From: an uncultured Candidatus Saccharibacteria bacterium
Lineage (GTDB): Bacteria > Patescibacteriota > Saccharimonadia > Saccharimonadales > CAZNVG01
Reading direction: 5' to 3'
DNA length: 64,000 bases
Assembly (NCBI GenBank): GCA_964576475.1
Contig: CAZNVG010000001.1
Coordinates: forward strand, 8,367 to 72,366
The translations under genes were made by a program, and so were the position numbers. The notes below the pieces were generated by a model. It was not told where the DNA came from. It made no database searches and was given only the letters and a program-made list of their open reading frames with translations. Of the stretch, positions 1 through 50,107 are shown piece by piece (within the stretch, counting starts at the first letter, position 1; each line of letters starts with the position of its first letter).

Positions 1-378
1 GAATCAGTGTTTGGTGGTGAGATTACTCAGGTCATACGATTCAAAGACCTCGAGGGTCCTGAGTTTCTTGTACCTACAGACGAAGCTGAAAGTATCATGC
101 GGATTGTGCTGCCAATTGGAAATAATACGTTAATAGCGAATGACGTCCCTAAGGGCATGGGGCCTGTGAACGAGCAAGAAAACCGATCGAAGATCTCGGT
201 TACTGCCAATACACGCGAAGAAGCGGATAAAATCTTTACAGGTCTCTCAGATGGCGGATCAGTCGAAATGCCAATGAGCGACAGTCCATGGGCGACGTAT
301 TTCGGAATGCTTAGGGATAAATACGGCATTGAATGGACGGTTGAGTTCACTCAGAGCACAGATACTCCGTCTCAATAA
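1..378 (+). CDS. VOC/glyoxalase-fold protein (PhnB-like), probably 5'-truncated by the window edge
   Basis: C-terminal motif DSPWATYFGMLRDKYGIEW is typical of PhnB/VOC-family proteins. The reading frame is open from base 1. Confidence 0.5.
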   Translation, partial: ESVFGGEITQVIRFKDLEGPEFLVPTDEAESIMRIVLPIGNNTLIANDVPKGMGPVNEQENRSKISVTANTREEADKIFTGLSDGGSVEMPMSDSPWATYFGMLRDKYGIEWTVEFTQSTDTPSQ

Positions 379-6870: not shown

Positions 6871-7458
6871 ATGAAAATAGTTATCATATCTGGCAGTCAT
6901 CGTAAGGGTAGTGAATCTTTACGTGTTGCAGAGTATTTGTCGAGTCGTGTTCAATCTCTTAAGCTCGCCGAAAGTACTGTCCTGGATCTATACGCGCAAC
7001 CCATAAGTTTCGATCCAGATGTCATATGGAGCGGTCAGGACGAAAACTTCAATAACCACGAGAAAGTTCTCACAGAAGCGGACGCGGTGGTTGTAGTGTC
7101 GCCAGAGTGGGGCGGCGTCGCCAGTCCAATGCTTAAGAATTATCTTATCTTTTCAAAAGCTCTATATCACAAACCGGGCCTTGCGGTCGGCGTATCCAGT
7201 AGTAGGGGTGGTGCCTATCCTATTGCAGAGTTACGCAATGCAAACAAAAACAACCATATAGTTTGGGTACCTGAGCACGTTATTTTTAGAAACGTTGAAA
7301 GTTTGCTTATTGCAAGCGAGCCGGCAGACAAAGACGACAGTTACATTCGTGACAGGAGTGACTATGCACTAGGAGTACTTGCACAATATGCTACGGCGAT
7401 CAAACAGGTCAGAGAAAGTGATGTGCTCGATCGAGAGACATATCCTAATGGAATGTAA
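6871..7458 (+). CDS. NADPH-dependent FMN reductase / flavodoxin-like NAD(P)H oxidoreductase
   Basis: MKIVIISGSHRKGSES...VVVVSPEWGG is typical of the FMN_red family. Divergent from yajQ. Confidence 0.6.
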   Translation: MKIVIISGSHRKGSESLRVAEYLSSRVQSLKLAESTVLDLYAQPISFDPDVIWSGQDENFNNHEKVLTEADAVVVVSPEWGGVASPMLKNYLIFSKALYHKPGLAVGVSSSRGGAYPIAELRNANKNNHIVWVPEHVIFRNVESLLIASEPADKDDSYIRDRSDYALGVLAQYATAIKQVRESDVLDRETYPNGM

Positions 7459-16031: not shown

Positions 16032-16688
16032 GTGACCTCACAAAAAACTGTTCTTCTCGATTTTGACGGTACCGTAGCTGACTCTTTTGCTATGGCCGTT
16101 GATATTGCTCAGACGTTACTTAAAGCCTACGAATATCCTGTGCCTACTCAGGAGGAAATATTTGCCATGCGTGAATTGTCTGCTGCGCAGATCATAAAGG
16201 CAGCCAAGATTTCGCCAAGACACATACCAGCAATGGTTAAATACGTACGCGGCGAGCAAAAAAGTAGGATCAATACAGTAAAGCCGATACACGGTATCGA
16301 ACCAGTGCTCAAACAGCTCGCCAAGAGCTATCACTTGGGTATTGTTAGTTCATCGGATGCGCCGCTCATTCAGAATTTTCTTAAGAAGTACGAACTAGAT
16401 CACGTCATTACATCGGTTATTGGTGGGGCTGGTATATTTCAGAAGCATCGCTCTATACGTCGTTATATGAAGAAGCACAAATTGCACAATGATGACGTCG
16501 TTTATATTGGCGACGAAGCCAGGGACGTTGATGCTGCTCGCAAGGCTCGTGTTGGTTCGATCTCTGTTAACTGGGGATTTAATGGCATGAAGCCACTTAC
16601 TAAAGCCGGTCCCGATATACTTGTAACGAAAGTAAGTGATTTAGCGGCGGCAGTTAATACAATGTTTTCTAATAACGAGGATGATTAG
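16032..16688 (+). CDS. HAD-superfamily hydrolase (subfamily IA, phosphatase-like)
   Basis: Motif I LLDFDGTVADS and a C-terminal GDEARD motif. Confidence 0.65.
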   Translation: MTSQKTVLLDFDGTVADSFAMAVDIAQTLLKAYEYPVPTQEEIFAMRELSAAQIIKAAKISPRHIPAMVKYVRGEQKSRINTVKPIHGIEPVLKQLAKSYHLGIVSSSDAPLIQNFLKKYELDHVITSVIGGAGIFQKHRSIRRYMKKHKLHNDDVVYIGDEARDVDAARKARVGSISVNWGFNGMKPLTKAGPDILVTKVSDLAAAVNTMFSNNEDD

Positions 16689-16689
16689 T

Positions 16690-17679
16690 ATGGATGATTC
16701 AGTTGTTGACGTAGCAATAATCGGGGCTGGTCCCGCTGGCTTAAGTGCCGCAATTTACACAACACGAGAAGACCTAAAAACAGTGCTATTCGATAAGGGT
16801 GTCATCGGTGGACTCGCCGCAATTACTGACTGGGTAGACAACTATCCAGGATTCAAGGATGGTGTAAGTGGTCTCGCGCTAGCAGAGCAACTTCAGGCTC
16901 AAGCAGAACGATTCGGTGCCGACATTCGACTCGGAGAAGTCACCAAAATTTCAGAAGATAAAGGCCTCAAGCTACTCGATACAACAGAAGGTCCGCTTCA
17001 CGCACGCAGTGTATTAATTGCTACAGGTAGCGAATATAAAATGCTTGGCATACCGGGGGAGAAAGAATTCTACGGACGGGGTGTGCACTACTGCGCTACG
17101 TGTGACGGCGCTTTTTACAGAGACAAGCGTCTCGTCGTAATAGGCGGAGGTAACTCTGCCGTACAAGAAGCTTTATTTTTAACCAAATTTGCATCACATA
17201 TAGACCTGCTCGCACGTTCGACAGTCAAAGCCAGCGAGGTTCTACAACACGAGCTAGAAAAGAACGACAAAATTACTGTCCATGAGGGCATTACTCCGAT
17301 TGAGATAGTTGGCGACAAAGCACCAGCCGATGGCGGGAAAATAGTTCGGGTTGCTGCGAAGAAAACTGACGGGGGCGATAGTGTTGATTTTGAAACAGAT
17401 GGCGTGTTCGTGTTTATAGGATTGAAACCGCAGAGCGAATTTGTTCAAAATAGTGCTATTGAGCTTGATGAAGTAGGGCTAATAAAAACTGACGAGATGC
17501 TCGAGACTTCAATTCCAGGTGTATTCTGTGCGGGTGATGTACGACATAACGCTACTATGCAAATTGCCAGTGCTGTCGGCGAAGGTGCGACTGCTGCGTT
17601 AAAAATCCGTGAATACCTGGAAGGCGTTGAGCGTGGCGAAAAACCAAGCCTTACAACCCAGTCTGCTGCTAAAGACTAG
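16690..17679 (+). CDS. trxB: thioredoxin-disulfide reductase
   Basis: FAD-binding site IIGAGPAGLSAA, redox-active CATCDG, NADPH-binding GGGNSA. Start set at the ATG 8 nt after GAGGA. Confidence 0.85.
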   Translation: MDDSVVDVAIIGAGPAGLSAAIYTTREDLKTVLFDKGVIGGLAAITDWVDNYPGFKDGVSGLALAEQLQAQAERFGADIRLGEVTKISEDKGLKLLDTTEGPLHARSVLIATGSEYKMLGIPGEKEFYGRGVHYCATCDGAFYRDKRLVVIGGGNSAVQEALFLTKFASHIDLLARSTVKASEVLQHELEKNDKITVHEGITPIEIVGDKAPADGGKIVRVAAKKTDGGDSVDFETDGVFVFIGLKPQSEFVQNSAIELDEVGLIKTDEMLETSIPGVFCAGDVRHNATMQIASAVGEGATAALKIREYLEGVERGEKPSLTTQSAAKD

Positions 17680-18108
17680 CTACTGAAGATCGCCAATCTT
17701 GAGCTTTGAAAGTTCATTTGAAGCTTGCGACGAATGTTGCCCTTCACCACCCTGAGTGGCAAATAATTGCGAGCCATCTCGACCACATGCCTGGGTAATA
17801 ACACCACCGCCCGGATGCTGAGAAATATAGCTAGTAAGGTCGTATACGCTATTGTTGATAATTGTCCAACAATCAGACGAACTGTTGTGCATAGCAACAA
17901 TATCCTGCGTTAGACCCTCGGCGGTACTTGGAGTAGCCGTATTGTCCGTCGTGGGACTTTGCGATGACTGAGTGGTGGGTTGATTTTGCAAAGTGGTTGA
18001 CTGCGAACCTACTGAGCTAGGGCGATCTTTTGCGAACGCCAGCGCAGCACCTCCACCAATTAATATAACTGCTATGACACTAATAATCGCGATCGTTGAT
18101 TTTGGCAT
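17680..18108 (-). CDS. membrane-anchored cytochrome b5-like heme-binding domain protein
   Basis: N-terminal TM, Ser/Thr/Gln-rich linker, then C-terminal HNSSSDCWTIINNSVYDLTSYISQHPGG, which is the cytochrome b5 HPGG motif. Confidence 0.5.
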   Translation of the reverse strand: MPKSTIAIISVIAVILIGGGAALAFAKDRPSSVGSQSTTLQNQPTTQSSQSPTTDNTATPSTAEGLTQDIVAMHNSSSDCWTIINNSVYDLTSYISQHPGGGVITQACGRDGSQLFATQGGEGQHSSQASNELSKLKIGDLQ

Positions 18109-27327: not shown

Positions 27328-29292
27328 ATGCCGCGATTTGAGCTCAATGCACAATACAAACCCACAGGAGATCAACCGAGCGCTATAGCGCAGCTTAATG
27401 CTGGATTGGAGTCTGGACAGAGAGAACAGGTGTTGCTCGGTGTAACTGGCTCGGGCAAGACCTTTACTATGGCTAATTTAATTGCCAAACGACAGAAGCC
27501 GACATTAGTACTAAGCCACAATAAAACTCTAGCAGCACAGCTGTATAACGAATTCAAAGAATTCTTTCCAAACAACTCAGTTCATTATTTTGTTAGCTAT
27601 TTTGATTATTACCAGCCAGAAGCATACGTGGCACGCTCAGATACCTACATAGAAAAAGATTCACAAATAAACGAAGAGATCGATCGACTTAGACACGCGG
27701 CAACCTCTGCGCTACTTACACAAAAAGACGTCATAATTGTAGCCAGCGTAAGTTGCATTTATGGAATTGGCTCAGTTGAAGACTACGACTCGTTAGCGGT
27801 CAGTATAGAACGGGGTGAAAAACGACGTCGAGATAAGTTGCTTCGTCACCTGTCAGACATCCAGTATCAACGAAATGACGTAGACTTTCATAGGTCAACA
27901 TTTCGAGTTCGCGGTGATGTGGTCGATATTTTCCCAGCTGGCGAACAATCAGCATTTCGTGTGGAGTTCTTCGGCGACGAGGTTGATAGAATTACACAAA
28001 TCAACCCTCTAACTGGTGAGATACTTGGCGATAAGCAGTCAATTAAAGTATTCCCAGGAAGTCACTACGTAACACCACAAGAAAAACTAAAAGACGCCAT
28101 CGATAAAATACGACAAGAGTTAGCATTACGATTAACATACTTTCGTTCGCAGGGATTGCTACTAGAAGCACAAAGACTAGAACAACGAACAAACTTTGAT
28201 TTAGAAATGCTTGAGGAGACCGGTTTTGTCAAAGGTATTGAAAACTATTCTAGGTACTTAACCAACCGCGAACCTGGTGAGCAGCCGGCGACTCTGATGG
28301 ACTATTTTCCTGATGACTATCTGATGTTTATTGATGAATCACATATGACACTACCGCAACTAAGGGGTATGTATAACGGGGATAGAGCTCGCAAAGAAGT
28401 ATTAGTTGAACACGGGTTCCGATTACCAAGCGCACTCGACAACAGACCTCTTATGTTCCAGGAATTTGAAAGACACATTAATCAAGTGGTGTACGTGTCA
28501 GCGACACCGAGCGAGTACGAACTTTCTCGGGGAGGCAAACCAGCTCAGCAAGTCATTCGCCCAACGGGTCTGCTCGATCCTGTGATAGAAATTAGACCAG
28601 TTAAAGGTCAGGTTGATGACTTACTAGCGGAGATCAGGTCTACCGTCGCGAAACATCAACGCGTCCTCGTCACAACGCTCACCAAACGTATGGCGGAAGA
28701 CCTAAGTGAATATCTGTCTGAGCTTAAAGTAAAAGTCCAATATCTACATTCTGACGTAGACACTATGGATAGAACAGACATATTACGAGACCTTAGACTT
28801 GGAGTGTACGACGTACTTATAGGCATAAACTTGCTTCGTGAAGGACTTGATCTGCCTGAAGTCTCGCTTGTCGCTATCCTTGATGCGGATAAAGAAGGTT
28901 TCCTACGCAGCGAGCAGGCACTTATACAGACTGTTGGTCGAGCAGCTAGGCATCAGGAAGGCCGTGTCATCATGTATGCCGACGTCATCACAGGATCAAT
29001 GAAGCGCACCATAGACGAGACAAACCGTCGTCGACTTATTCAGGACAAGCATAATAAAGACCACGACATAACACCTACGGGCGTTTTTAAATCCATTGGC
29101 GATGGCCTGCCAAGAGCTAAGAAAGATGAAGACGAGCCAGCTCGTATTGACCTTAAGAAAATACCTAAGGACGAATACACACACCTAGTGCGCGAACTAT
29201 CCTCACAAATGGAACTGGCAGCAGCAAATCTTGAGTTTGAGAAAGCAGCAGAGTTGCGCGACATAATTGACGACATCAAGTCTAAAATGTAG
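27328..29292 (+). CDS. uvrB: excinuclease ABC subunit B
   Basis: Walker [11 protein letters not shown], helicase motifs, and a C-terminal UVR domain ([10 protein letters not shown]). Confidence 0.9.
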
Positions 29293-42631: not shown

Positions 42632-43760
42632 CACGCGCTACAGTCCCAACGAGTCGGTCGTCGAGAATTGAAGGAATGATTTCCTGCTGAGACGGAGCTA
42701 CAACTAACGAAGCGATAGCTTCTGCCGCAGCTAACTTATGTTCCTCAGTAATTGCACTGACACCGTTATCCAGAGCTCCTCTAAAAATACCGGGAAATGC
42801 CAAGGCGTTATTTATCTGATTAGGGAAGTCACTGCGACCTGTTGCAACGATAAATGCACCGGCAGCATGGGCGTCGTCGGGTGTAATTTCAGGGTTCGGG
42901 TTTGCGAGAGCAAATATAATCGGTTTGTCAGCCATACTTTTTACGTGTGACTCCTGCAGCAAACCTGCCTTACTCACACCTATAAATATGTCGGCGTCTT
43001 TGATTGCCTCTTCTAAGTTTCCAGCACCGGGATCAAAGTCGACTGTGTGTAGTAGGGCTTTTTTCTCTTCGTTCAGATCATTCCGTGATGACGTAATGAT
43101 TCCTTTACTATCAACAAGCGTTATCTTAACTCCATGAGCATAGCTTTTAATGAGCTTCACTACCGCTGTACCCGCAGCGCCAGCACCGACAACTGTTATT
43201 CGGCAGCTATCAAGTGCTTTACCCGCAAGTTTTGTCGCGTTTATGAGACCTGCTAGTACAACTATTGCCGTGCCGTGTTGGTCGTCATGCATAATTGGAA
43301 TGCGTAGTTTGTTTTTAAGCGTATCTTCGATAGCAAAACACTTCGGTGCAGAAATATCCTCCAAGTTAATGGCACCAAAGCTGGGCGCGATTGCAGTAAT
43401 GGCGGCTATAATTTCGTCCGGTTCATGTACATCAAGCACAATTGGCACTGCATCAATATCTGCAAAGTGCTTAAACAACATAGCTTTGCCCTCCATGACG
43501 GGCATCGCACCATATGGCCCTATATCGCCAAGCCCTAGTACTGCTGAACCGTCTGAAATAATTGCTACTAAATTATTTGTCCACGAATAATCTCTAAGCT
43601 CGTCAGGATGGGCTGCCACGTATGAAGAAACGGCTCCAACTCCAGGACTATAATAAGCACTAAGTTTATCCTTTGAATCAGGAACATCTCGAAGACTGGT
43701 TTGAATTTTACCCTTGTATTTCTTATGTAGTTCGAGCGCTAATTGTGCGTAATCCATCAT
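42621..43760 (-). CDS. NAD(P)-dependent malic enzyme (small-form, MaeB-like)
   Basis: Malic enzyme N-terminal and NAD-binding domains (VYTPGV-like start region, GAGAAG Rossmann). Confidence 0.8.
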   Translation of the reverse strand: MMDYAQLALELHKKYKGKIQTSLRDVPDSKDKLSAYYSPGVGAVSSYVAAHPDELRDYSWTNNLVAIISDGSAVLGLGDIGPYGAMPVMEGKAMLFKHFADIDAVPIVLDVHEPDEIIAAITAIAPSFGAINLEDISAPKCFAIEDTLKNKLRIPIMHDDQHGTAIVVLAGLINATKLAGKALDSCRITVVGAGAAGTAVVKLIKSYAHGVKITLVDSKGIITSSRNDLNEEKKALLHTVDFDPGAGNLEEAIKDADIFIGVSKAGLLQESHVKSMADKPIIFALANPNPEITPDDAHAAGAFIVATGRSDFPNQINNALAFPGIFRGALDNGVSAITEEHKLAAAEAIASLVVAPSQQEIIPSILDDRLVGTVARVIH

Positions 43761-43807
43761 GACCCCAATGCTTTAGTGTACTGGTCTACAGTATATCCCA
43801 TTCGTTA

Positions 43808-44254
43808 TTACGAAACTTGCGTGATCATTAATTTATGGAGCACAAGTATAAATAAGGCACAGTACAGTAGTTCGTATATCCAACCATAAGGCCTCTCGCC
43901 CCATTGTAGCCAGCTGTGAAACCTATAAAATGCATTCTTTGGCAGTTTTCGCTTTCCGAAAATTAACCAGGTAAAGTCAGGTAGTGCCGCAAAGAACATG
44001 CCAACTACAGCAGCTTGCCACAGAGTTGGCCAGGTCAATAGTATAATAGCCAAGGCCGTAAAGCACGCAGTCGCGTCAATAAACAATATGGTTGTAAAGG
44101 TTCTGTCCCAATGTTTCATATTCTTGACACGTCCAAAGTGCGGCAGAGAGTCGCATACAAAATGTGACGCAAATGCAATTGGCGCAACAAGATATGGCTG
44201 CTTGACTGTCAGTCCGACAATTGCACCAACAAGCGTATGATTAATTCCTGTCAT
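43808..44254 (-). CDS. membrane protein, possibly DUF457/YdjM-like metal-dependent hydrolase family
   Basis: MTGINHTLVGAIVG start and His-containing TM segments. Weak family resemblance only. Confidence 0.35.
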   Translation of the reverse strand: MTGINHTLVGAIVGLTVKQPYLVAPIAFASHFVCDSLPHFGRVKNMKHWDRTFTTILFIDATACFTALAIILLTWPTLWQAAVVGMFFAALPDFTWLIFGKRKLPKNAFYRFHSWLQWGERPYGWIYELLYCALFILVLHKLMITQVS

Positions 44255-44296
44255 TACGCTTAACTATACAGTATGCTCATTTTACCCTTATAAGGG

Positions 44297-44325
44297 TTGC
44301 TATAGGGGCGAAAAGCTGCTAGACT
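44297..44325 (+). promoter_or_regulatory. sigma70-like promoter (TTGCTA, 17-nt spacer, TAGACT) giving a very short leader for rplS
   Basis: Seen directly. The -10 ends about 12 nt before the rplS ATG. Confidence 0.35.
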
Positions 44326-44336
44326 ACACCCTCGTT

Positions 44337-44777
44337 ATGTCAACAACAGCAGCAATTCAAGCAAAGTATCTCAAACCCAAAGTAGTCGACGTGCAAAGCG
44401 GCGACACAGTTAAAGTGCACCAGCGAATTCGCGAGGGCAATAAGACTCGTGTCCAGGTATTCGAAGGCATGGTCATACGGACAAAGCGAACCGGTTCACT
44501 GACGAGCAGCATTACTGTTCGGAGAATCGCAAGCGGCGTTGGGGTAGAGAAGAGTTATCTTTTGCACAGTCCGCTTATCGAAAAAGTGGAAGTTGTTAAA
44601 CGTAGCAAAGTACGCCGCAATTTCTTAAGCTACATGCGAAACCGTAGTGGTAAGTCAGCTCGACTAAGCGGTGTTGATTTTGATCGTGAGAAAGTAAACG
44701 ATACGTCAGTTGCTGAGGAGCAAACAAAAAAGACTACTGATTCATCAGAAGTCACAGACGAAAAAACTGAAGAATAA
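44337..44777 (+). CDS. rplS: 50S ribosomal protein L19 (with C-terminal extension)
   Basis: VHQRIREGNKTRVQVFEGMVIRTKRTGSLTSSITVRRI is the L19 core. Confidence 0.9.
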   Translation: MSTTAAIQAKYLKPKVVDVQSGDTVKVHQRIREGNKTRVQVFEGMVIRTKRTGSLTSSITVRRIASGVGVEKSYLLHSPLIEKVEVVKRSKVRRNFLSYMRNRSGKSARLSGVDFDREKVNDTSVAEEQTKKTTDSSEVTDEKTEE

Positions 44778-44819
44778 AAAACTTCTTCATAGTCATAGTG
44801 CTCATGCTAAGATAACTGC

Positions 44820-45587
44820 ATGAGCACTATTTCTTTACCAACACTTAACAAACTAAATATCTACGCTTCTCTGGCACATCTTTTGCAAGCGCTGGCAGTC
44901 TTCATGCTAGCTCGCGACTTCACGCTTCCTATAAATATATCCTTACTAAGATTCAATCAATCTACCCAAGGTCTCGATCCAGGCGTGCAGGAAATATACA
45001 GATTACCCTTAGCCTCACTTATTATTGGGTTCTTTTTGTTATCAGCTTTTTTTCACGCTATTATCTCTACTTTGTATCGTCGACGCTACGAACAAGATCT
45101 CTCCCAGGGTATTAATCGCCTTCGATGGATTGAGTACGCACTTAGCGCCAGTACTATGATGGTAGCCATAGCAATGCTCGTAGGTGTCTATGACCTAGCT
45201 AGTCTACTTATGATTTTCGCACTGACAGCTGGCATGAACTTGATGGGGCTTGTTATGGAGGTGACAAATAAGAAATCCAAGAATCCTAGCTGGCTAAGTT
45301 ACCTCATAGGCTGCGGCGCAGGAATAGTACCGTGGATTGTCATTGCCTTATACTTCTGGGCTAGTAGCCACTACGCAAATAGCGCACCACCAACTTTCGT
45401 ATATTACATTTATGGCTCAATCTTCATATTCTTCAACGGATTTGCAATCAATATGTGGCTACAATATAAGCGACTAGGGAAGTGGAGTAACTACTTGTAC
45501 GGCGAACGAACCTATATCATATTAAGCCTCGTCGCTAAGTCCGCTTTAGCCTGGCAAGTATTTGCTGGCACTCTTCGACCAAACTAG
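44820..45587 (+). CDS. heliorhodopsin (7-TM, inverted-topology microbial rhodopsin)
   Basis: Strong motif-level match to the heliorhodopsin family as I recall it: LAHLLQALAV...RWIEYALSAS...GCGAGIVPW...KWSNYLYGERTYIILSLVAKSALAWQVF. The last block contains the TM7 Lys (retinal Schiff base). Confidence 0.75.
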   Translation: MSTISLPTLNKLNIYASLAHLLQALAVFMLARDFTLPINISLLRFNQSTQGLDPGVQEIYRLPLASLIIGFFLLSAFFHAIISTLYRRRYEQDLSQGINRLRWIEYALSASTMMVAIAMLVGVYDLASLLMIFALTAGMNLMGLVMEVTNKKSKNPSWLSYLIGCGAGIVPWIVIALYFWASSHYANSAPPTFVYYIYGSIFIFFNGFAINMWLQYKRLGKWSNYLYGERTYIILSLVAKSALAWQVFAGTLRPN

Positions 45588-46151
45588 ATGATAGGCATAG
45601 ATGAAGTTGGTCGTGGAACTTGGGCGGGTCCGCTTCTTGTAGCCGCAGTGCGACTTCACGGTGATATAGCTGGCTTGACTGATAGTAAGTTACTGTCAGC
45701 TAAGAAACGTGCGATTTTAGCCCTTCAGATACAAAAGACTGCCGATATAGGTCTCGGCTGGGTATCGGCAGAAACCATAGACTCATTAGGTCTAACACGG
45801 TGTCTGGAGATAGGTGCCTTGCGTGCTGTTTCTGAACTGAGGGCTAATTCTTCTGAACCTATCATCATAGACGGCACACAGAATTTCTTGCCAGAAACGT
45901 ACGCAGTTGAGACTCACGTTAAAGCCGAGCTCAACTTTCCGTCTGTAGCGGCCGCCTCAATTATCGCTAAAGAGCTCAGGGACTCCTATATGCGCGCAAT
46001 TGCCACAAAACATCCTGAGTATGCATTCGAATCACACGTCGGCTATGGTACAGCAGTACACGCGCAGGCGCTGCAACAATTCGGAGTCATTGAATCGTTA
46101 CACCGACTGAGCTTTAAGCCAATTAAGGCACTACTCCTCAACGCGAGGTAA
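45588..46151 (+). CDS. rnhB: ribonuclease HII
   Basis: MIGIDEVGRGTWAGPLLVAAV and a DSK catalytic region. ATG directly abuts the upstream stop. Confidence 0.85.
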   Translation: MIGIDEVGRGTWAGPLLVAAVRLHGDIAGLTDSKLLSAKKRAILALQIQKTADIGLGWVSAETIDSLGLTRCLEIGALRAVSELRANSSEPIIIDGTQNFLPETYAVETHVKAELNFPSVAAASIIAKELRDSYMRAIATKHPEYAFESHVGYGTAVHAQALQQFGVIESLHRLSFKPIKALLLNAR

Positions 46152-47075
46152 CTCGGTCATTTTCCGGTAGTCACCTAACTCCAGTGTCTTCTCGTACGGG
46201 TGAGAAGGTAATTCTTGCTCTCGCTTTTTTCGCGCCTTATCAAACGCCTCATTTGCGTCAAATGCTGCAGCGAGCACGCCAAGATGATACATAATGTTGT
46301 ACTCATCAAAGTCATTCGCTTCAAATCGATAGTCTTTACTCATACGCATCGCTCCAACTGATAGTGGATGCAGTCTGCTCTTGGGCTTGAGAGGTTTTTT
46401 AACTTCTTGTTTAAAGTCAGCTGGATTTACTGAATACTCTTTTTCAGTCCAAGAACCTAGGTTCTCCATAGATCGAATATGTCTTTTAAGTGACAGTGAT
46501 ACCATTTGACCAGCTCTTACTTCGTCTTTCATGAGTGCATATTTAAAGTCCGCACCGTGAACCGCTCGTGCATTATCGTGAAGACGTGAGAAATCCGATG
46601 ATTCCTGTGGCAAGGCTAGCGACCGCATAGCTGCATCCCGTGCAGCAGTAAAGTAGCGTGCTGAAACAACGTATTTTGAAAAGTTTAGTATCCAGCCGTC
46701 ATCATCTCTCTTAAGTGAGCGTCTAGCGACAAGTATCTCTAGTAATTCAGGTTCCTTGGGCATTAACCGCTCCCCAATGACAAAACCTGCGTAATTTTCA
46801 GGAATATCTACAACATAACTGCGCGCAACGCCAACATACTCTGGGCTATCGGTTAACGCTAGTGCTCCGCTTTTGCCGGTCTCGACTTTAGTCGCAATTG
46901 CACCGATTACCGATCCGACAAAACGAAAGTTAGTCTGCCATGCCTCAATTGCATATTCGGTTGTTTCTATTGCCAGTCCAGCAACACCCTTTAATTGAGC
47001 TTCACGTAGTTCACGCATGCTCTCGCGTATATTTCGGAGGGCTAATTCCGTTTGATCAACGGGCTCATTTTCCAT
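46131..47075 (-). CDS. hypothetical protein (314 aa)
   Basis: Long ORF convergent with rnhB, overlapping its end by about 20 nt. No recognisable family. Confidence 0.45.
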   Translation of the reverse strand: MENEPVDQTELALRNIRESMRELREAQLKGVAGLAIETTEYAIEAWQTNFRFVGSVIGAIATKVETGKSGALALTDSPEYVGVARSYVVDIPENYAGFVIGERLMPKEPELLEILVARRSLKRDDDGWILNFSKYVVSARYFTAARDAAMRSLALPQESSDFSRLHDNARAVHGADFKYALMKDEVRAGQMVSLSLKRHIRSMENLGSWTEKEYSVNPADFKQEVKKPLKPKSRLHPLSVGAMRMSKDYRFEANDFDEYNIMYHLGVLAAAFDANEAFDKARKKREQELPSHPYEKTLELGDYRKMTELPRVEE

Positions 47076-47116
47076 AAGAGTGAACTATACAACTTTATGC
47101 TACATTAGTAAATAAT

Positions 47117-47455
47117 ATGTCTACGTATATAGGTCGAACTGCAGAGAATATGGCTCTTCAAGAGCTTGAACTGCTTGGCTTCAATCTAGTAGCCCAAAAC
47201 TGGCGAACAAGACTATGCGAAGTAGATATAATCGTCTCTAAAGGTGACACTATCTATTTCGTCGAAGTAAAGTATCGTCGGTCTTCAGTATCGGGCGATG
47301 GCATAGACTATATTACTTCTAAGAAGTTACAGCAGATGCGCTTTGCGGCTGAACTATGGTGCGCACAGAACAGGTGGCTGGGCGACTATGAACTGGCAGC
47401 AATCGCCGTATCAGGGAGTGACTATACTGTTGGCGACTTAGTGCTCTGTGGCTGA
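47117..47455 (+). CDS. yraN: YraN-family endonuclease (UPF0102)
   Basis: GRTAENMALQELELLGFNLVAQNWRTRLCEVDIIVSKGDTIYFVEVKYRRS matches the YraN pattern. Confidence 0.75.
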   Translation: MSTYIGRTAENMALQELELLGFNLVAQNWRTRLCEVDIIVSKGDTIYFVEVKYRRSSVSGDGIDYITSKKLQQMRFAAELWCAQNRWLGDYELAAIAVSGSDYTVGDLVLCG

Positions 47456-50107
47456 ATACCGAACAAGCCATTTCTTGACGGCCTCATGATCGCGATTACG
47501 CCAGGCAACTCTCGCAGCAATATCTGAGTACCCAACAAGAATGTTTCTATGAAGCATTTTATGTGATTCAAGCGGCTCGAAAAATTCATGATAGCGCTTC
47601 TGCCAAGCCTCGTCATTCATCGCACCGGCACAATATGTGGGTAAGTAGTCAAATGATTTACTTTTGCCCAGAGTATCTTGAATCCATTCCCAGTTCTCAG
47701 TCATATACTCCCAAGTTATTTCACGAAGTCGATAATTGCGCATAAATAGTGCAATCCATCTCAGGAGATCCTGCGGTCGCACAAACCCATTTATCCCAAG
47801 AGCCTTTTCAAGTATTCGTTTTGCGAGCATAGGATCCTTAGTACTACTGAGAGCGCCCGTTATGTCGCTTTGCACTTCAGGATGCGCTGATGGATACTGC
47901 TCAAGCAAGTCCATTGCATACGAATCATCATCGTGCCGTACCATTACGGATAGGATTGTGCCACGTATTTCAGCAGGAAGAGACTCGATTGAGTCCGCTT
48001 TTTTGAAACGTGCTTTCGCTTCATTAAGCGCAGACTCGTCTTCAGAACCTACCATTAGCGACAGGGCAGTATGACGAAGTTGTTTCGTGTTTGGATCATC
48101 GTCTTTTTGATCATCCCATCCAAGCGTCGTATACCATTGTTGCGACAATTGCTTGCGCAGGGTACGGAGTGCCGCTTCTGATTCTTCATCGCCTTCAGTG
48201 ATAACACTCGCACTACCAATCACCCGCGTAATCAGCCCCCAAACGTTATCTCGAGGCTCGCTTGCTGTGTGCTCAATAATCTGAAGTGCTTTGGTAAGTG
48301 AGTCATCGCCACGCCGCGCCAGCAGCAGTAAATCATTTAGCATGTTTATTCTGGCTTCAGCTGAAATCTTTTGGTTTTGTAACTGAGTGATGAGGTGCTG
48401 TGTATGATTGTCGCCAATATATTGGGTGACAAAATGTGCGCTACCTTGATGATTCAGCAGGATAGGGTTCTTGCTTTCACTGACGATCGTGGCTTCTTTT
48501 GTCTTCAAGAGGTCAGGTTTTAATGTTTCATTAGCCAATAGCGGTATAGGCCAGAGTGTTGTATCGTTTTGCGCATCTAATACAAACCGCTCCTGTGACA
48601 AATGAACTTTTTCGGCATCTTGTGAAACACGGACAAGCGCCAAGCCCGGTTGCGTTATCCAAGGGGTCATGAGCGCACCAATGTCCTTGCCGCTCACTTC
48701 ACTCATGGCACGCCATAAGTCTTCCCTGGTGGTGTTCCCGTATTCGTGTCGATGAAAATATATCTGGAGAGCTTTCGAAAAATCTTTGTCTCCAATGTAG
48801 TCTCGAAGCATTTTCAGTAGTCTTCCACCCTTGGCATAGACGATACCCGGATCAAACAGTGTTTCTATTAGCTCTGGGTCTGTAACCTTAACTCCGACTG
48901 GTTGTATGTCTTTATATATGTCTCTGTTCGACGAACTAATTATGTCGAGCGCAGTATAGTGCTCCCATTGCTTCCATTCTGGATGAATTACGTCGAGAGA
49001 AAGGTGCTCCATGATACTTGCGAAGCTTTCGTTTAACCACAAGTCATCCCACCATTGCATTGTGACAAGATTGCCAAACCACTGATGAGAAAGTTCATGT
49101 GCGACAACGATCGACACATATTGCTCTGAACTTATTGATCTATTTTGAGGATCGGCCAACAACGCTACTTCACGGTAAGTGATGAGCCCCCAGTTTTCCA
49201 TGGCTCCTGCATCAAAGTCAGGTAACGCGACCTGATCACACTTACTCAGCGGAAAAGGCACACCAAAGTACTCTGTATAGAATTCCAAGAGCTTAACTGC
49301 TTCGTGAGTGGCATACGTAAGCTGCTCTACTGGTCTCGCGACAGCTGACCACGATCTGACAACAATGCCATCTTTGGTTTTTGCCTCAAAGCAGTGCATC
49401 TTACCAATGACAAAAGCAAGCAAGTATGTACTCATACGAGGGGTTTTTTCAAAGCTAATCCGCGAAAGCCCGTCACTAGATTCTCGGCTCAGCTCAGGTG
49501 TGTTACTTAATACAACCTGACCCTCAATAGCTGGCGTCTCTATACTTAGCGAGAACGTCGCTTTTGCTGCCGGCTCATCAATACATGGAAACGCCTCTCG
49601 GGCATGATGGCTTTCAAACTGCGTTGCTAAAATGACTTCCTCAACACCGTCATGATCAAAGCGACTAGGATAAATACCATTCATTACATCAGTAATGCTA
49701 CCCTTGAATTCTACTGTAACCGTGTAGTTCCCTGGATATAATTTATCTTCCGTATGCAAGCGAACTTCTTCGAGCTTTTTGTGGTGATGAATCCGTGTAA
49801 CCTCAGGACTATGTTCACGTTTTCGTTCATGTCGAGTAATCGTTGCGCCAGTTATAGTCAGGTCACGTTGGTGCAGCGTTATTCGTTGAGCGGGTTTTTT
49901 TAACTGCCCTGTAATGACCGCTGAGCCACTGAAACTTTTGCTACCCTCGGCAATTTTAAGAGTTAATTCGTAGTGTTCTGGAGCGAATGATGCATGGAGG
50001 CGTTTGGCAGATGACATGTAATTAATCGTAGCATGGCTTGATGAAAGCTGTGTCGTTATGCTATAGTTAACACGTTGTCCGGCCGTTCTCAGGTCGGCTT
50101 TTTTCAT
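47438..50107 (-). CDS. pepN: aminopeptidase N (M1 family); alternative start at 50017
   Basis: HELSHQWFGNLVTMQWWDDLWLNESFA (HEXXH + E) and GAMEN. The N-terminus from MSSAKRLHASFAPEHYEL aligns with typical PepN starts. The upstream ATG at 50107 has a GGGGG SD. Confidence 0.8.
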   Translation of the reverse strand: MKKADLRTAGQRVNYSITTQLSSSHATINYMSSAKRLHASFAPEHYELTLKIAEGSKSFSGSAVITGQLKKPAQRITLHQRDLTITGATITRHERKREHSPEVTRIHHHKKLEEVRLHTEDKLYPGNYTVTVEFKGSITDVMNGIYPSRFDHDGVEEVILATQFESHHAREAFPCIDEPAAKATFSLSIETPAIEGQVVLSNTPELSRESSDGLSRISFEKTPRMSTYLLAFVIGKMHCFEAKTKDGIVVRSWSAVARPVEQLTYATHEAVKLLEFYTEYFGVPFPLSKCDQVALPDFDAGAMENWGLITYREVALLADPQNRSISSEQYVSIVVAHELSHQWFGNLVTMQWWDDLWLNESFASIMEHLSLDVIHPEWKQWEHYTALDIISSSNRDIYKDIQPVGVKVTDPELIETLFDPGIVYAKGGRLLKMLRDYIGDKDFSKALQIYFHRHEYGNTTREDLWRAMSEVSGKDIGALMTPWITQPGLALVRVSQDAEKVHLSQERFVLDAQNDTTLWPIPLLANETLKPDLLKTKEATIVSESKNPILLNHQGSAHFVTQYIGDNHTQHLITQLQNQKISAEARINMLNDLLLLARRGDDSLTKALQIIEHTASEPRDNVWGLITRVIGSASVITEGDEESEAALRTLRKQLSQQWYTTLGWDDQKDDDPNTKQLRHTALSLMVGSEDESALNEAKARFKKADSIESLPAEIRGTILSVMVRHDDDSYAMDLLEQYPSAHPEVQSDITGALSSTKDPMLAKRILEKALGINGFVRPQDLLRWIALFMRNYRLREITWEYMTENWEWIQDTLGKSKSFDYLPTYCAGAMNDEAWQKRYHEFFEPLESHKMLHRNILVGYSDIAARVAWRNRDHEAVKKWLVRYSATEH

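Follow-up and report, generated by a model that had tools for sequence, protein, structure and literature searches.

A 64,000-nucleotide stretch of bacterial DNA (hereafter the window) carries, between the ribosomal protein gene rplS and the RNase HII gene rnhB, an open reading frame (ORF) whose product resembles the heliorhodopsins (HeRs), a family of light-sensing retinal proteins. The locus raises the question of whether the gene encodes a functional photoreceptor, where its retinal would come from, and whether its place between two housekeeping genes indicates what it does. The gene is a genuine, intact HeR. We consider it probable, at roughly 80%, that the whole explanation is as follows: a functional HeR of the candidate phyla radiation (CPR)/TaHeR-like type resides in a Saccharimonadia-like host, relies on external retinal, is a lineage-specific insertion, and has its own leaderless promoter.

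Identity, fold, and retinal supply of the HeR

The 255-aa ORF starts with ATG, and no competing overlapping ORF of at least 60 aa is present (Table 1). Its product matches Pfam family PF18761 with 306.7 bits (cutoff 26.7, E = 1.3e-91) and the NCBIfam equivalog NF038020 with 311.4 bits (cutoff 100, E = 4.1e-93), and the two profiles are covered completely (positions 1–242 of 242 and 1–244 of 244, respectively). In a sequence search of the PDB, it matches TaHeR with E = 5e-72 and 48C12, the founding member of the family, with E = 4e-57. A preliminary description of the locus had proposed a HeR from four motifs, LAHLLQALAV (residues 18–27), RWIEYALSAS (102–111), GCGAGIVPW (164–172), and KWSNYLYGERTYIILSLVAKSALAWQVF (221–248). 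The translation contains all four, the flanking genes match the profiles of rplS and rnhB, and the proposal holds. The findings that it had named as contrary to itself, namely the lack of a profile match, the absence of the lysine in transmembrane helix 7 (TM7), and a topology other than seven TM helices, were looked for and not obtained.

Aligned with TaHeR and 48C12, the Schiff-base lysine is K240 in the TM7 segment S236-L-V-A-K240, which corresponds to S237 and K241 of 48C12. The predicted counterion E105 (E107 in 48C12) and the histidine pair H20/H79 (H23/H80) are present, and R102, W103, Y106, E147, W172 (W173), W245 (W246), and Q246 (Q247) are also in place. In an alignment of 55 CPR-clade sequences (the query and 54 relatives), 62 columns are invariant, including K240, E105, H79, S236, W172, and W245, and at least 90% of the sequences have the histidine corresponding to H20. 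Other positions are unusual in comparison with 119 relatives: K151 (Q in 98%), A186 (G in 99%), A19 and A80, each beside one of the two histidines (L in 85–90%), and G166 and G207 beside the lateral fenestration, each common to at most 1 of the relatives. Such atypical residues might adjust the binding of partners, the spectrum, or the access of retinal.

The AlphaFold2 (AF2) model computed from the alignment of 55 sequences has a predicted local distance difference test score (pLDDT) of 93.1 and a predicted template modeling score (pTM) of 0.89. It contains seven TM helices (residues 6–30, 64–83, 100–120, 126–149, 159–185, 192–217, and 225–251), as the preliminary description had expected. 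DSSP assigns strands 35–46 and 51–63 of the model to an extracellular β-hairpin between TM1 and TM2 (35–63) and a short helix (87–95) to the TM2–TM3 loop. In Foldseek comparisons, the model superimposes on TaHeR (6is6/7u55) with TM-scores of 0.92–0.95 and root mean square deviations of 1.5–1.7 Å, and on 48C12 with TM-scores of 0.87–0.90. Lysine and arginine account for 8 of the 37 residues in the N-terminus and the TM2–3, TM4–5, and TM6–7 loops, compared with 4 of 48 on the opposite side, where three of the four sit in the 33-residue β-hairpin loop. This charge bias fits an inverted topology, in which the N-terminus is predicted to be cytoplasmic and the C-terminus to be outside. The predicted cytoplasmic side has basic stretches at RRR 87–89, KKSK 151–154, and KR..K 217–221 (K217, R218, and K221).

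A type-1 rhodopsin or a pump of the SacR type was considered for the ORF and rejected. The ORF has no match to the type-1 family PF01036 (Bac_rhodopsin) at E ≤ 0.01, its lysine motif is SxxxK and not the DxxxK of type-1 rhodopsins, and the TM-scores of the model with type-1 structures are only 0.53–0.69 at 10–17% identity. SacRs, the type-1 rhodopsins of Saccharibacteria, share with the query the host group and, probably, the dependence on external retinal (PMC9296517), but they are DTS-motif proton pumps with the opposite membrane orientation. No SacR gene occurs in the window.

TaHeR (Thermoplasmatales archaeon SG8-52-1; PDB 6is6, 7u55, and 7clj) is the best solved match, with 52% identity over 234 aligned residues. 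Common to both proteins are SLVAK, the RW(I/F)EY counterion motif, the histidine pair, the fenestration tyrosine (Y161 in the query), N140, and M212. They differ in host, which is bacterial (CPR) for the query and archaeal for TaHeR; in the extracellular TM5–TM6 loop, which is five residues longer in the query; in the second intracellular loop (ICL2), TNKKSKNPS in the query versus HNQTTQNTN in TaHeR; and beside the fenestration, where G166 and G207 of the query replace I and C. 48C12 (PDB 6su3 and 6uh3), which comes from an actinobacterial fosmid, is 46% identical to the query and has I142, Q213, N138, and W146, whereas the query has N140, M212, T136, and L144, as in TaHeR.

In CPR genomes, Chiriac et al. 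(2022, PMC9166423) counted 98 HeRs; Saccharimonadia account for 80, and the TM7 motif seen most often is SLVAK. The query agrees with these published HeRs in its inferred host class, in SLVAK, in the apparent lack of retinal synthesis, and, probably, in the monoderm-type host pattern (PMC9166423; Bulzu et al. 2021, PMC8612252). It differs from them in that the nearest non-conspecific HeR is 68% identical and in that the rplS/rnhB location is found in no other sampled lineage. The gene adds one more ordinary member to a known family, in which Saccharimonadia HeRs are already documented.

The nearest named homologs of the HeR and of RnhB are from Candidatus Saccharibacteria/Saccharimonadia and other Patescibacteria. 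A neighbor-joining (NJ) tree places the HeR within the CPR clade and separates it from sequences of Chloroflexi and Thermoleophilia. Judged by named homologs and synteny, the host looks like a Saccharimonadia (CPR) bacterium. The coding density of the window is 91%. A Pfam scan of 59 window ORFs, among them all non-nested ORFs of at least 110 aa, left 12 without a match. The others include enzymes of glycolysis and of the pentose-phosphate pathway, PilB, a class A penicillin-binding protein, a fasciclin-domain surface protein, and proteins of DNA repair and replication. Families of outer-membrane biogenesis did not turn up among the 59 ORFs, which sample the 64-kb part of the genome only. The window contains no tRNA gene and no Rfam family at gathering score.

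The scan also bears on the chromophore. None of the 59 ORFs belongs to Blh/BCD, RPE65/CCD, phytoene synthase, phytoene desaturase, lycopene cyclase, or Bac_rhodopsin, in accordance with the earlier remark that the window lacks retinal-biosynthesis genes. The further remark, which asks where the chromophore would come from, does not stand as new, because the question is already addressed in print for such organisms. Rhodopsin-encoding Saccharibacteria lack blh and load external retinal rapidly; actinobacterial hosts or the environment have been proposed as its source; and HeR likewise takes up external retinal quickly via a lateral opening in the protein (Jaffe et al., PMC9296517). As cited in that paper, the source organism of TaHeR also has no retinal pathway, and TaHeR also loads external retinal quickly. 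The opening, or fenestration, has been defined in 48C12 numbering by the type of residue at six positions, of which 162 and 206 are aromatic, 166 and 210 are small, 169 is Gly, and 207 is Asn (bioRxiv 10.1101/2025.11.27.691015). The query has Y161, C165, G168, F205, N206, and A209 and is compatible at every defined position.

By analogy with characterized HeRs, all-trans-retinal bound to K240 would isomerize in light, and a long-lived photointermediate would follow, with no pumping of ions. The cell would make no retinal itself, and external retinal, from a host or the surroundings, would enter through the lateral fenestration. Alternatively, the HeR could be an energy or transport device, either transporting protons, as some giant-virus HeRs do, or harvesting light with two chromophores, one of them an external xanthophyll bound at the fenestration. 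The complete fenestration/carotenoid-binding-site motif is present, the rare glycines G166 and G207 flank the opening, and a 2025 preprint proposes that exogenous xanthophylls occupy the fenestration site in 91% of HeRs (bioRxiv 10.1101/2025.11.27.691015). However, this proposal is based on docking and not on measured energy transfer, and the transporting HeRs are a viral subfamily without the binding-site motif (same preprint). Non-viral HeRs are reported not to have been shown to pump ions (PMC8612252), and the query is a CPR-clade protein with TaHeR as its closest solved relative. A role in energy conversion or transport is therefore unlikely.

The rplS–rnhB junction

The preliminary description regarded the HeR gene as a member of a compact conserved cluster with rplS and rnhB. 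The neighbors are conserved, but the HeR is not. RnhB begins with MIGIDEVGRG, in agreement with the family consensus, and its ATG immediately follows the stop codon of the HeR gene (TAGATG, 0-bp gap). The backbone order in relatives is spoU, pilB, a small ORF, malic enzyme (minus strand), a small membrane protein (minus strand), rplS, rnhB, yraN, pepN (minus strand), nusA, and clpB. The three closest relatives by RnhB, the loci L055, L056, and L057 (identities of 58–60% for RnhB, 73–79% for RplS, 76–79% for PilB, 69–71% for malic enzyme, and 58–61% for PepN), keep this order and orientation, and all three are without HeR there. The rplS–rnhB gap is 65 bp in L055 and 109 bp in L056; in L057, it holds a gene for a 548-aa Big_7-domain protein. 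HeR is found in none of 80 further metagenomic RnhB loci. Conversely, neither rplS nor rnhB lies near HeR in any of 47 HeR loci from species-representative genomes, with flanks of up to ~6 kb. Because relatives with the same gene order lack it and because both surveys are negative, the HeR does not belong to the row, which is deeply conserved; it represents a lineage-specific insertion at one of the variable junctions there.

Elsewhere, the order rplS–HeR–rnhB occurs only on contigs with 99–100% identical genes, which indicates that they are from the same species. The name of one of these conspecific contigs, L049 (ENA ERZ22666147; DTU_2022_..._MG_HU_BU_3_201027_GSL...), resembles that of a sewage-surveillance sample; the resemblance is unverified.

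The junction is occupied in other ways in other lineages. In the closer loci among the 80 (RnhB identity of at least 44%), rplS is almost always upstream of rnhB, and wide gaps hold other genes. The junction genes of other lineages include a 165-aa membrane protein, a 175-aa ORF (NUDIX-like by eye), and a 141-aa ORF. In one distant relative, the gap genes are presumably lepB and the GTPase gene rbgA, an arrangement that we take to be the one known from Firmicutes. The rplS–rnhB(–yraN) row is thus ancient, and at its junctions accessory genes, such as the HeR gene, come and go.

The next junction of the window carries a second lineage-specific insertion in the same backbone, a near-orphan gene for a soluble 314-aa protein that overlaps the 3' end of rnhB by 21 bp. 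The protein has no Pfam match and only 20 matches with E ≤ 1e-3 among 1.84 billion representatives, the best non-identical one at 68 bits. The gene is under strong purifying selection, with a ratio of nonsynonymous to synonymous substitution rates (dN/dS) of 0.022. It is missing in L055 and L057, where the spacing between rnhB and yraN is 8–13 bp. In many relatives, yraN adjoins rnhB or is joined to it; in the latter case, RNase HII and the UPF0102/YraN nuclease-like domain form a single protein of ~300 aa (PF01351 + PF02021). This fusion speaks for a functional connection of RNase HII with YraN. Here, the two are encoded by separate genes, split by the inserted gene.

The composition and selection of the HeR gene bear on its age. 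Its GC content of 0.431 and its GC content at third codon positions (GC3) of 0.449 are inside the range of the window, and its codon-usage z-score of −1.84 is the same as that of the core gene rnhB. Compared with the diverged strain L048, it has 31 nucleotide differences, 27.5 synonymous and 3.5 nonsynonymous (dN/dS of 0.034), a constraint equal to that of the surrounding core genes. Native composition and strong purifying selection indicate that the HeR is not a fresh island gene. Thus, the preliminary statement that the gene does not look recently acquired survives on these grounds, while the conserved-cluster argument that had been given for it fails.

Several possible origins were tried and rejected. 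Composition gives no sign of a foreign origin, as GC, GC3, and codon usage are no outliers; with core rnhB equally atypical, it is uninformative on the insertion. A tblastn search of 50,697 phage records gave no match to the HeR. No empty site that corresponds to the HeR flanks of other CPR genomes is found in the window. The only overlaps are matches at the level of gene families and, in addition, a malic enzyme in L002, where the context is otherwise unrelated. Around the HeR gene, a search for insertion scars yielded no more than short direct repeats in two copies, of a quality expected by chance, and genes for an integrase or a transposase are not nearby. The arrival of the HeR may reflect either transfer from another CPR bacterium or a relocation inside the lineage.

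These observations also allow a different history, in which the HeR has long belonged to the rplS–rnhB cluster by vertical inheritance and has been lost in the sampled relatives. The native composition, the codon-usage score shared with rnhB, the lack of flanking repeats, integrase, and transposase, and the tight integration of the gene with the rplS terminator and the rnhB start are all compatible with it. However, this history needs independent losses in every sampled relative, and unrelated genes occupy the same junction elsewhere. In addition, the nearest HeR homologs (62–68% identity) are in entirely different gene contexts; that of the 68% homolog consists of hypothetical genes and Fic. 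We consider this history as improbable as an energy or transport role.

Terminator and candidate promoter

The region that contains the hairpin downstream of rplS (Table 1), 44770–44860, folds as RNA with −22.7 kcal/mol (z = −5.68), and none of 200 shuffled sequences is as stable. In L055, L056, and L057, a canonical intrinsic terminator occupies the corresponding position downstream of rplS. Therefore, the hairpin is by position the intrinsic terminator of rplS. The start codon of the HeR gene (44820–44822) is inside the 3' arm of the hairpin. Relative to L048, the spacer contains no substitution, only a 1-nt change in the length of an A-run upstream of the hairpin; the synonymous divergence (dS) of the flanking genes is 0.04–0.18. 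A scan of 43700–47600 for consensus promoters and terminators gives matches no more frequent than in shuffled sequences. It missed the rplS hairpin because the loop is 10 nt.

The extended −10-like element within the hairpin is one of many in the window. TAnnnT ends 6–8 nt before the start codon in 12 of the 55 window genes, compared with ~2.7 expected, for a bin of distances that was picked after examples had been seen. The TG extension is present in 7 of those 12 genes (~0.17 expected), usually in the form TGCTAnnnT. Examples of boxes of this type are those at 1590, 20986, 27328 (uvrB), 40713 (pilB), 43808 (minus strand), 46131 (minus strand), 50075 (nusA), and 53958. A Shine-Dalgarno core is found in only 19 of the 55 genes. 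Such a spacing between the −10 element and the start codon is a signature of leaderless mRNAs. The same arrangement precedes 16 of 27 CPR HeR genes. The pattern suggests widespread leaderless transcription in this Saccharibacteria-like genome; a search of the accessible literature on leaderless transcription in Saccharibacteria found nothing relevant.

We infer that the element at the rplS terminator is a candidate promoter of a leaderless HeR–rnhB mRNA. The HeR gene would be transcribed from its own extended −10 promoter in the terminator loop, and the leaderless mRNA would also carry rnhB. In a read-through transcript from rplS, the AUG of the HeR would be buried in the hairpin. Because the start of rnhB abuts the stop of the HeR gene, rnhB must be transcribed through the HeR gene. 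Terminator, candidate promoter, and start codon overlap here, and this, along with the leaderless-type promoter pattern, offers a concrete, testable model for the expression of genes in these uncultured bacteria.

In each of the three relatives that lack HeR, a conserved GGGATCCACCC(T) motif lies directly between the rplS stop codon and the hairpin of the terminator. It is at ~4936–4950 in L055, ~4892–4906 in L056, and ~3229–3243 in L057, and it is absent from the entire window.

Table 1 Features at and around the HeR locus.
Feature	Position in window	Strand	Basis and remarks
rplS (ribosomal protein L19)	44337..44777	+	Ribosomal_L19, 125 bits; TIGR01024, 118 bits
rplS terminator hairpin	44795..44830	+	Perfect 13-bp inverted repeat, 10-nt loop, then TTTCTTT; inverted-repeat search, RNA fold
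Extended −10-like element, TGCTAAGAT	44805..44813	+	End of 5' arm and loop of the hairpin; ends 6 nt before the HeR ATG
Heliorhodopsin (HeR) gene	44820..45587	+	ORF call, PF18761, NF038020, PDB sequence matches, AF2 model
rnhB (RNase HII)	45588..46151	+	RNase_HII, 107.5 bits; NF000595, 181 bits (cutoff 167)
314-aa near-orphan gene	46131..47075	−	Between rnhB and yraN
yraN (UPF0102)	47117..47455	+	PF02021, 67.5 bits; backbone gene

Partners, alternatives, and other HeR loci

Basic intracellular loops are reported to be the route by which HeRs regulate glutamine synthetase, photolyase, and an ABC transporter (PMC11109279). By analogy, the signal of the present HeR would go via its basic cytoplasmic loops to one or more partner proteins, and the HeR would act as a light switch, probably in connection with responses to light or oxidative stress. 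As none of the neighbors of the HeR is conserved, no partner can be named. In the known regulatory operons (AbHeR with glutamine synthetase, HeR with photolyase, and OcHeR with the ABC transporter OmrDE; PMC9529153, PMC9769723, PMC11109279), the HeR has basic loops and a co-directional abutting gene, as in the query. In contrast, the abutting rnhB of the query is no recurrent HeR neighbor, and its position predates the arrival of the HeR.

The window encodes several proteins of redox metabolism or damage repair: a glyoxalase-fold protein (7..378), an FMN reductase (6871..7458), a thioredoxin-reductase-like flavoprotein (16681..17679), a cytochrome b5-like protein (17680..18108, minus strand), and UvrB (27328..29292). 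They agree with the published hypothesis that connects HeRs with light and oxidative stress, but they have no link to the HeR here and prove nothing.

A HeR partner shared with other CPR loci was sought and rejected, as the only recurrent neighborhood is not in the window. It occurs in a Saccharibacteria subclade (L004, L020–L026, L028, and L045), where the order is msrA ... HeR – rsmE-like – X – serS. A GGGCFWC-motif protein (MsrA-like) is upstream, an RsmE-like gene starts 2–16 bp downstream of HeR, and genes for a conserved protein of ~260–295 aa and a SerS-like protein follow. The order and the family names were read by eye from the sequences, with no HMM (hidden Markov model) scan.

A partner suggested by position would be RNase HII itself. 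The HeR could be coupled to its operon neighbors and, in light, bind and modulate RNase HII, an enzyme of ribonucleotide excision and R-loop repair; another version of the idea is a link to L19 or the ribosome. The two genes are on the same strand with a 0-bp gap, within the limit of <10 bp used to call operon partners of HeRs (PMC8612252). Characterized HeRs regulate the products of co-transcribed genes, including a DNA-repair enzyme (PMC11109279), and ICL2 of the query is unusually basic, with K151 where nearly all relatives have Q. However, the adjacency is limited to one species-level lineage, as the 47 HeR loci and 80 RnhB loci indicate. RNase H and ribosomal genes are outside the ten published groups of HeR neighbors and are not mentioned in the main text of the survey, and tight spacing is the norm at the coding density of this window. 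In addition, rnhB directly follows rplS in relatives, indicating that its position is inherited and that it was not recruited by the HeR. A coupling of this kind is thus quite unlikely.

A bolder form of the same idea, in which the HeR, after landing between the rplS terminator and rnhB, became both the transcriptional gatekeeper and a physical regulator of RNase HII, is very unlikely. If true, it would mean light-gated ribonucleotide-excision/R-loop repair in a genome-reduced episymbiont and a second DNA-repair partner of HeRs after photolyase. Finally, the HeR might have no role as a photoreceptor and be a relic, either decaying or retinal-independent, as could occur in a dark-living organism. 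The unverified sewage-like name of L049 and the lack of a retinal pathway nearby hint at this, but it is highly improbable given the low dN/dS over 27.5 synonymous changes, a frame intact in two diverged strains, and the retention of every invariant family residue, including K240.

The reading of a functional HeR with external retinal and its own promoter has points against it as well. Retinal binding, a photocycle, and signaling to a partner are predicted by homology to characterized HeRs. The leaderless promoter is read from a sequence pattern, in a bin of distances chosen with knowledge of examples. The search for retinal genes covers the 64-kb window, and a blh/crt cluster may lie elsewhere in the genome. 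No conserved neighbor indicates a partner, and the HeR shares no recurrent HeR neighborhood. K151, A186, G166, G207, A19, and A80 depart from otherwise conserved positions, and a sewage habitat, if the name of L049 is a true hint, has little light.

The locus fits the published picture of Saccharimonadia HeRs at every tested point, and it has little consequence beyond correct annotation. Nor does it make the cellular role of HeRs in general more tractable. It is of modest use as a clean example, open to dating, of how an accessory photoreceptor gene can land in a deeply conserved housekeeping row. It lends support to the idea that HeRs pass freely between monoderm genomes and are placed regardless of neighbors, so that guesses of function from neighbors need checks of conservation.

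Two observations concern HeRs of other genomes. In a Saccharimonadia metagenome-assembled genome (MAG; L002:5992-10516), the order is DinB-like / HeR – MarR – MFS – MFS, with the MarR gene and the two major facilitator superfamily (MFS) genes on the same strand after HeR, an arrangement that recalls the published pairing of HeRs with multidrug transporters. In addition, two MAGs labeled as Caldisericota, L009 (JANLFL010000002.1, a contig of 436,519 bp) and L016, have HeRs nested in the CPR clade, 57% and 54% identical to the query, respectively. The flanks in L009 (QueG, radical SAM, Usp, ACR3-like, and MinD-like) are not CPR-like in look, and the GC content is 0.43 around HeR versus 0.51 upstream. 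The placement and the flanks could reflect transfer from CPR into another phylum, which would bear on the rule that HeRs occur in monoderms only.

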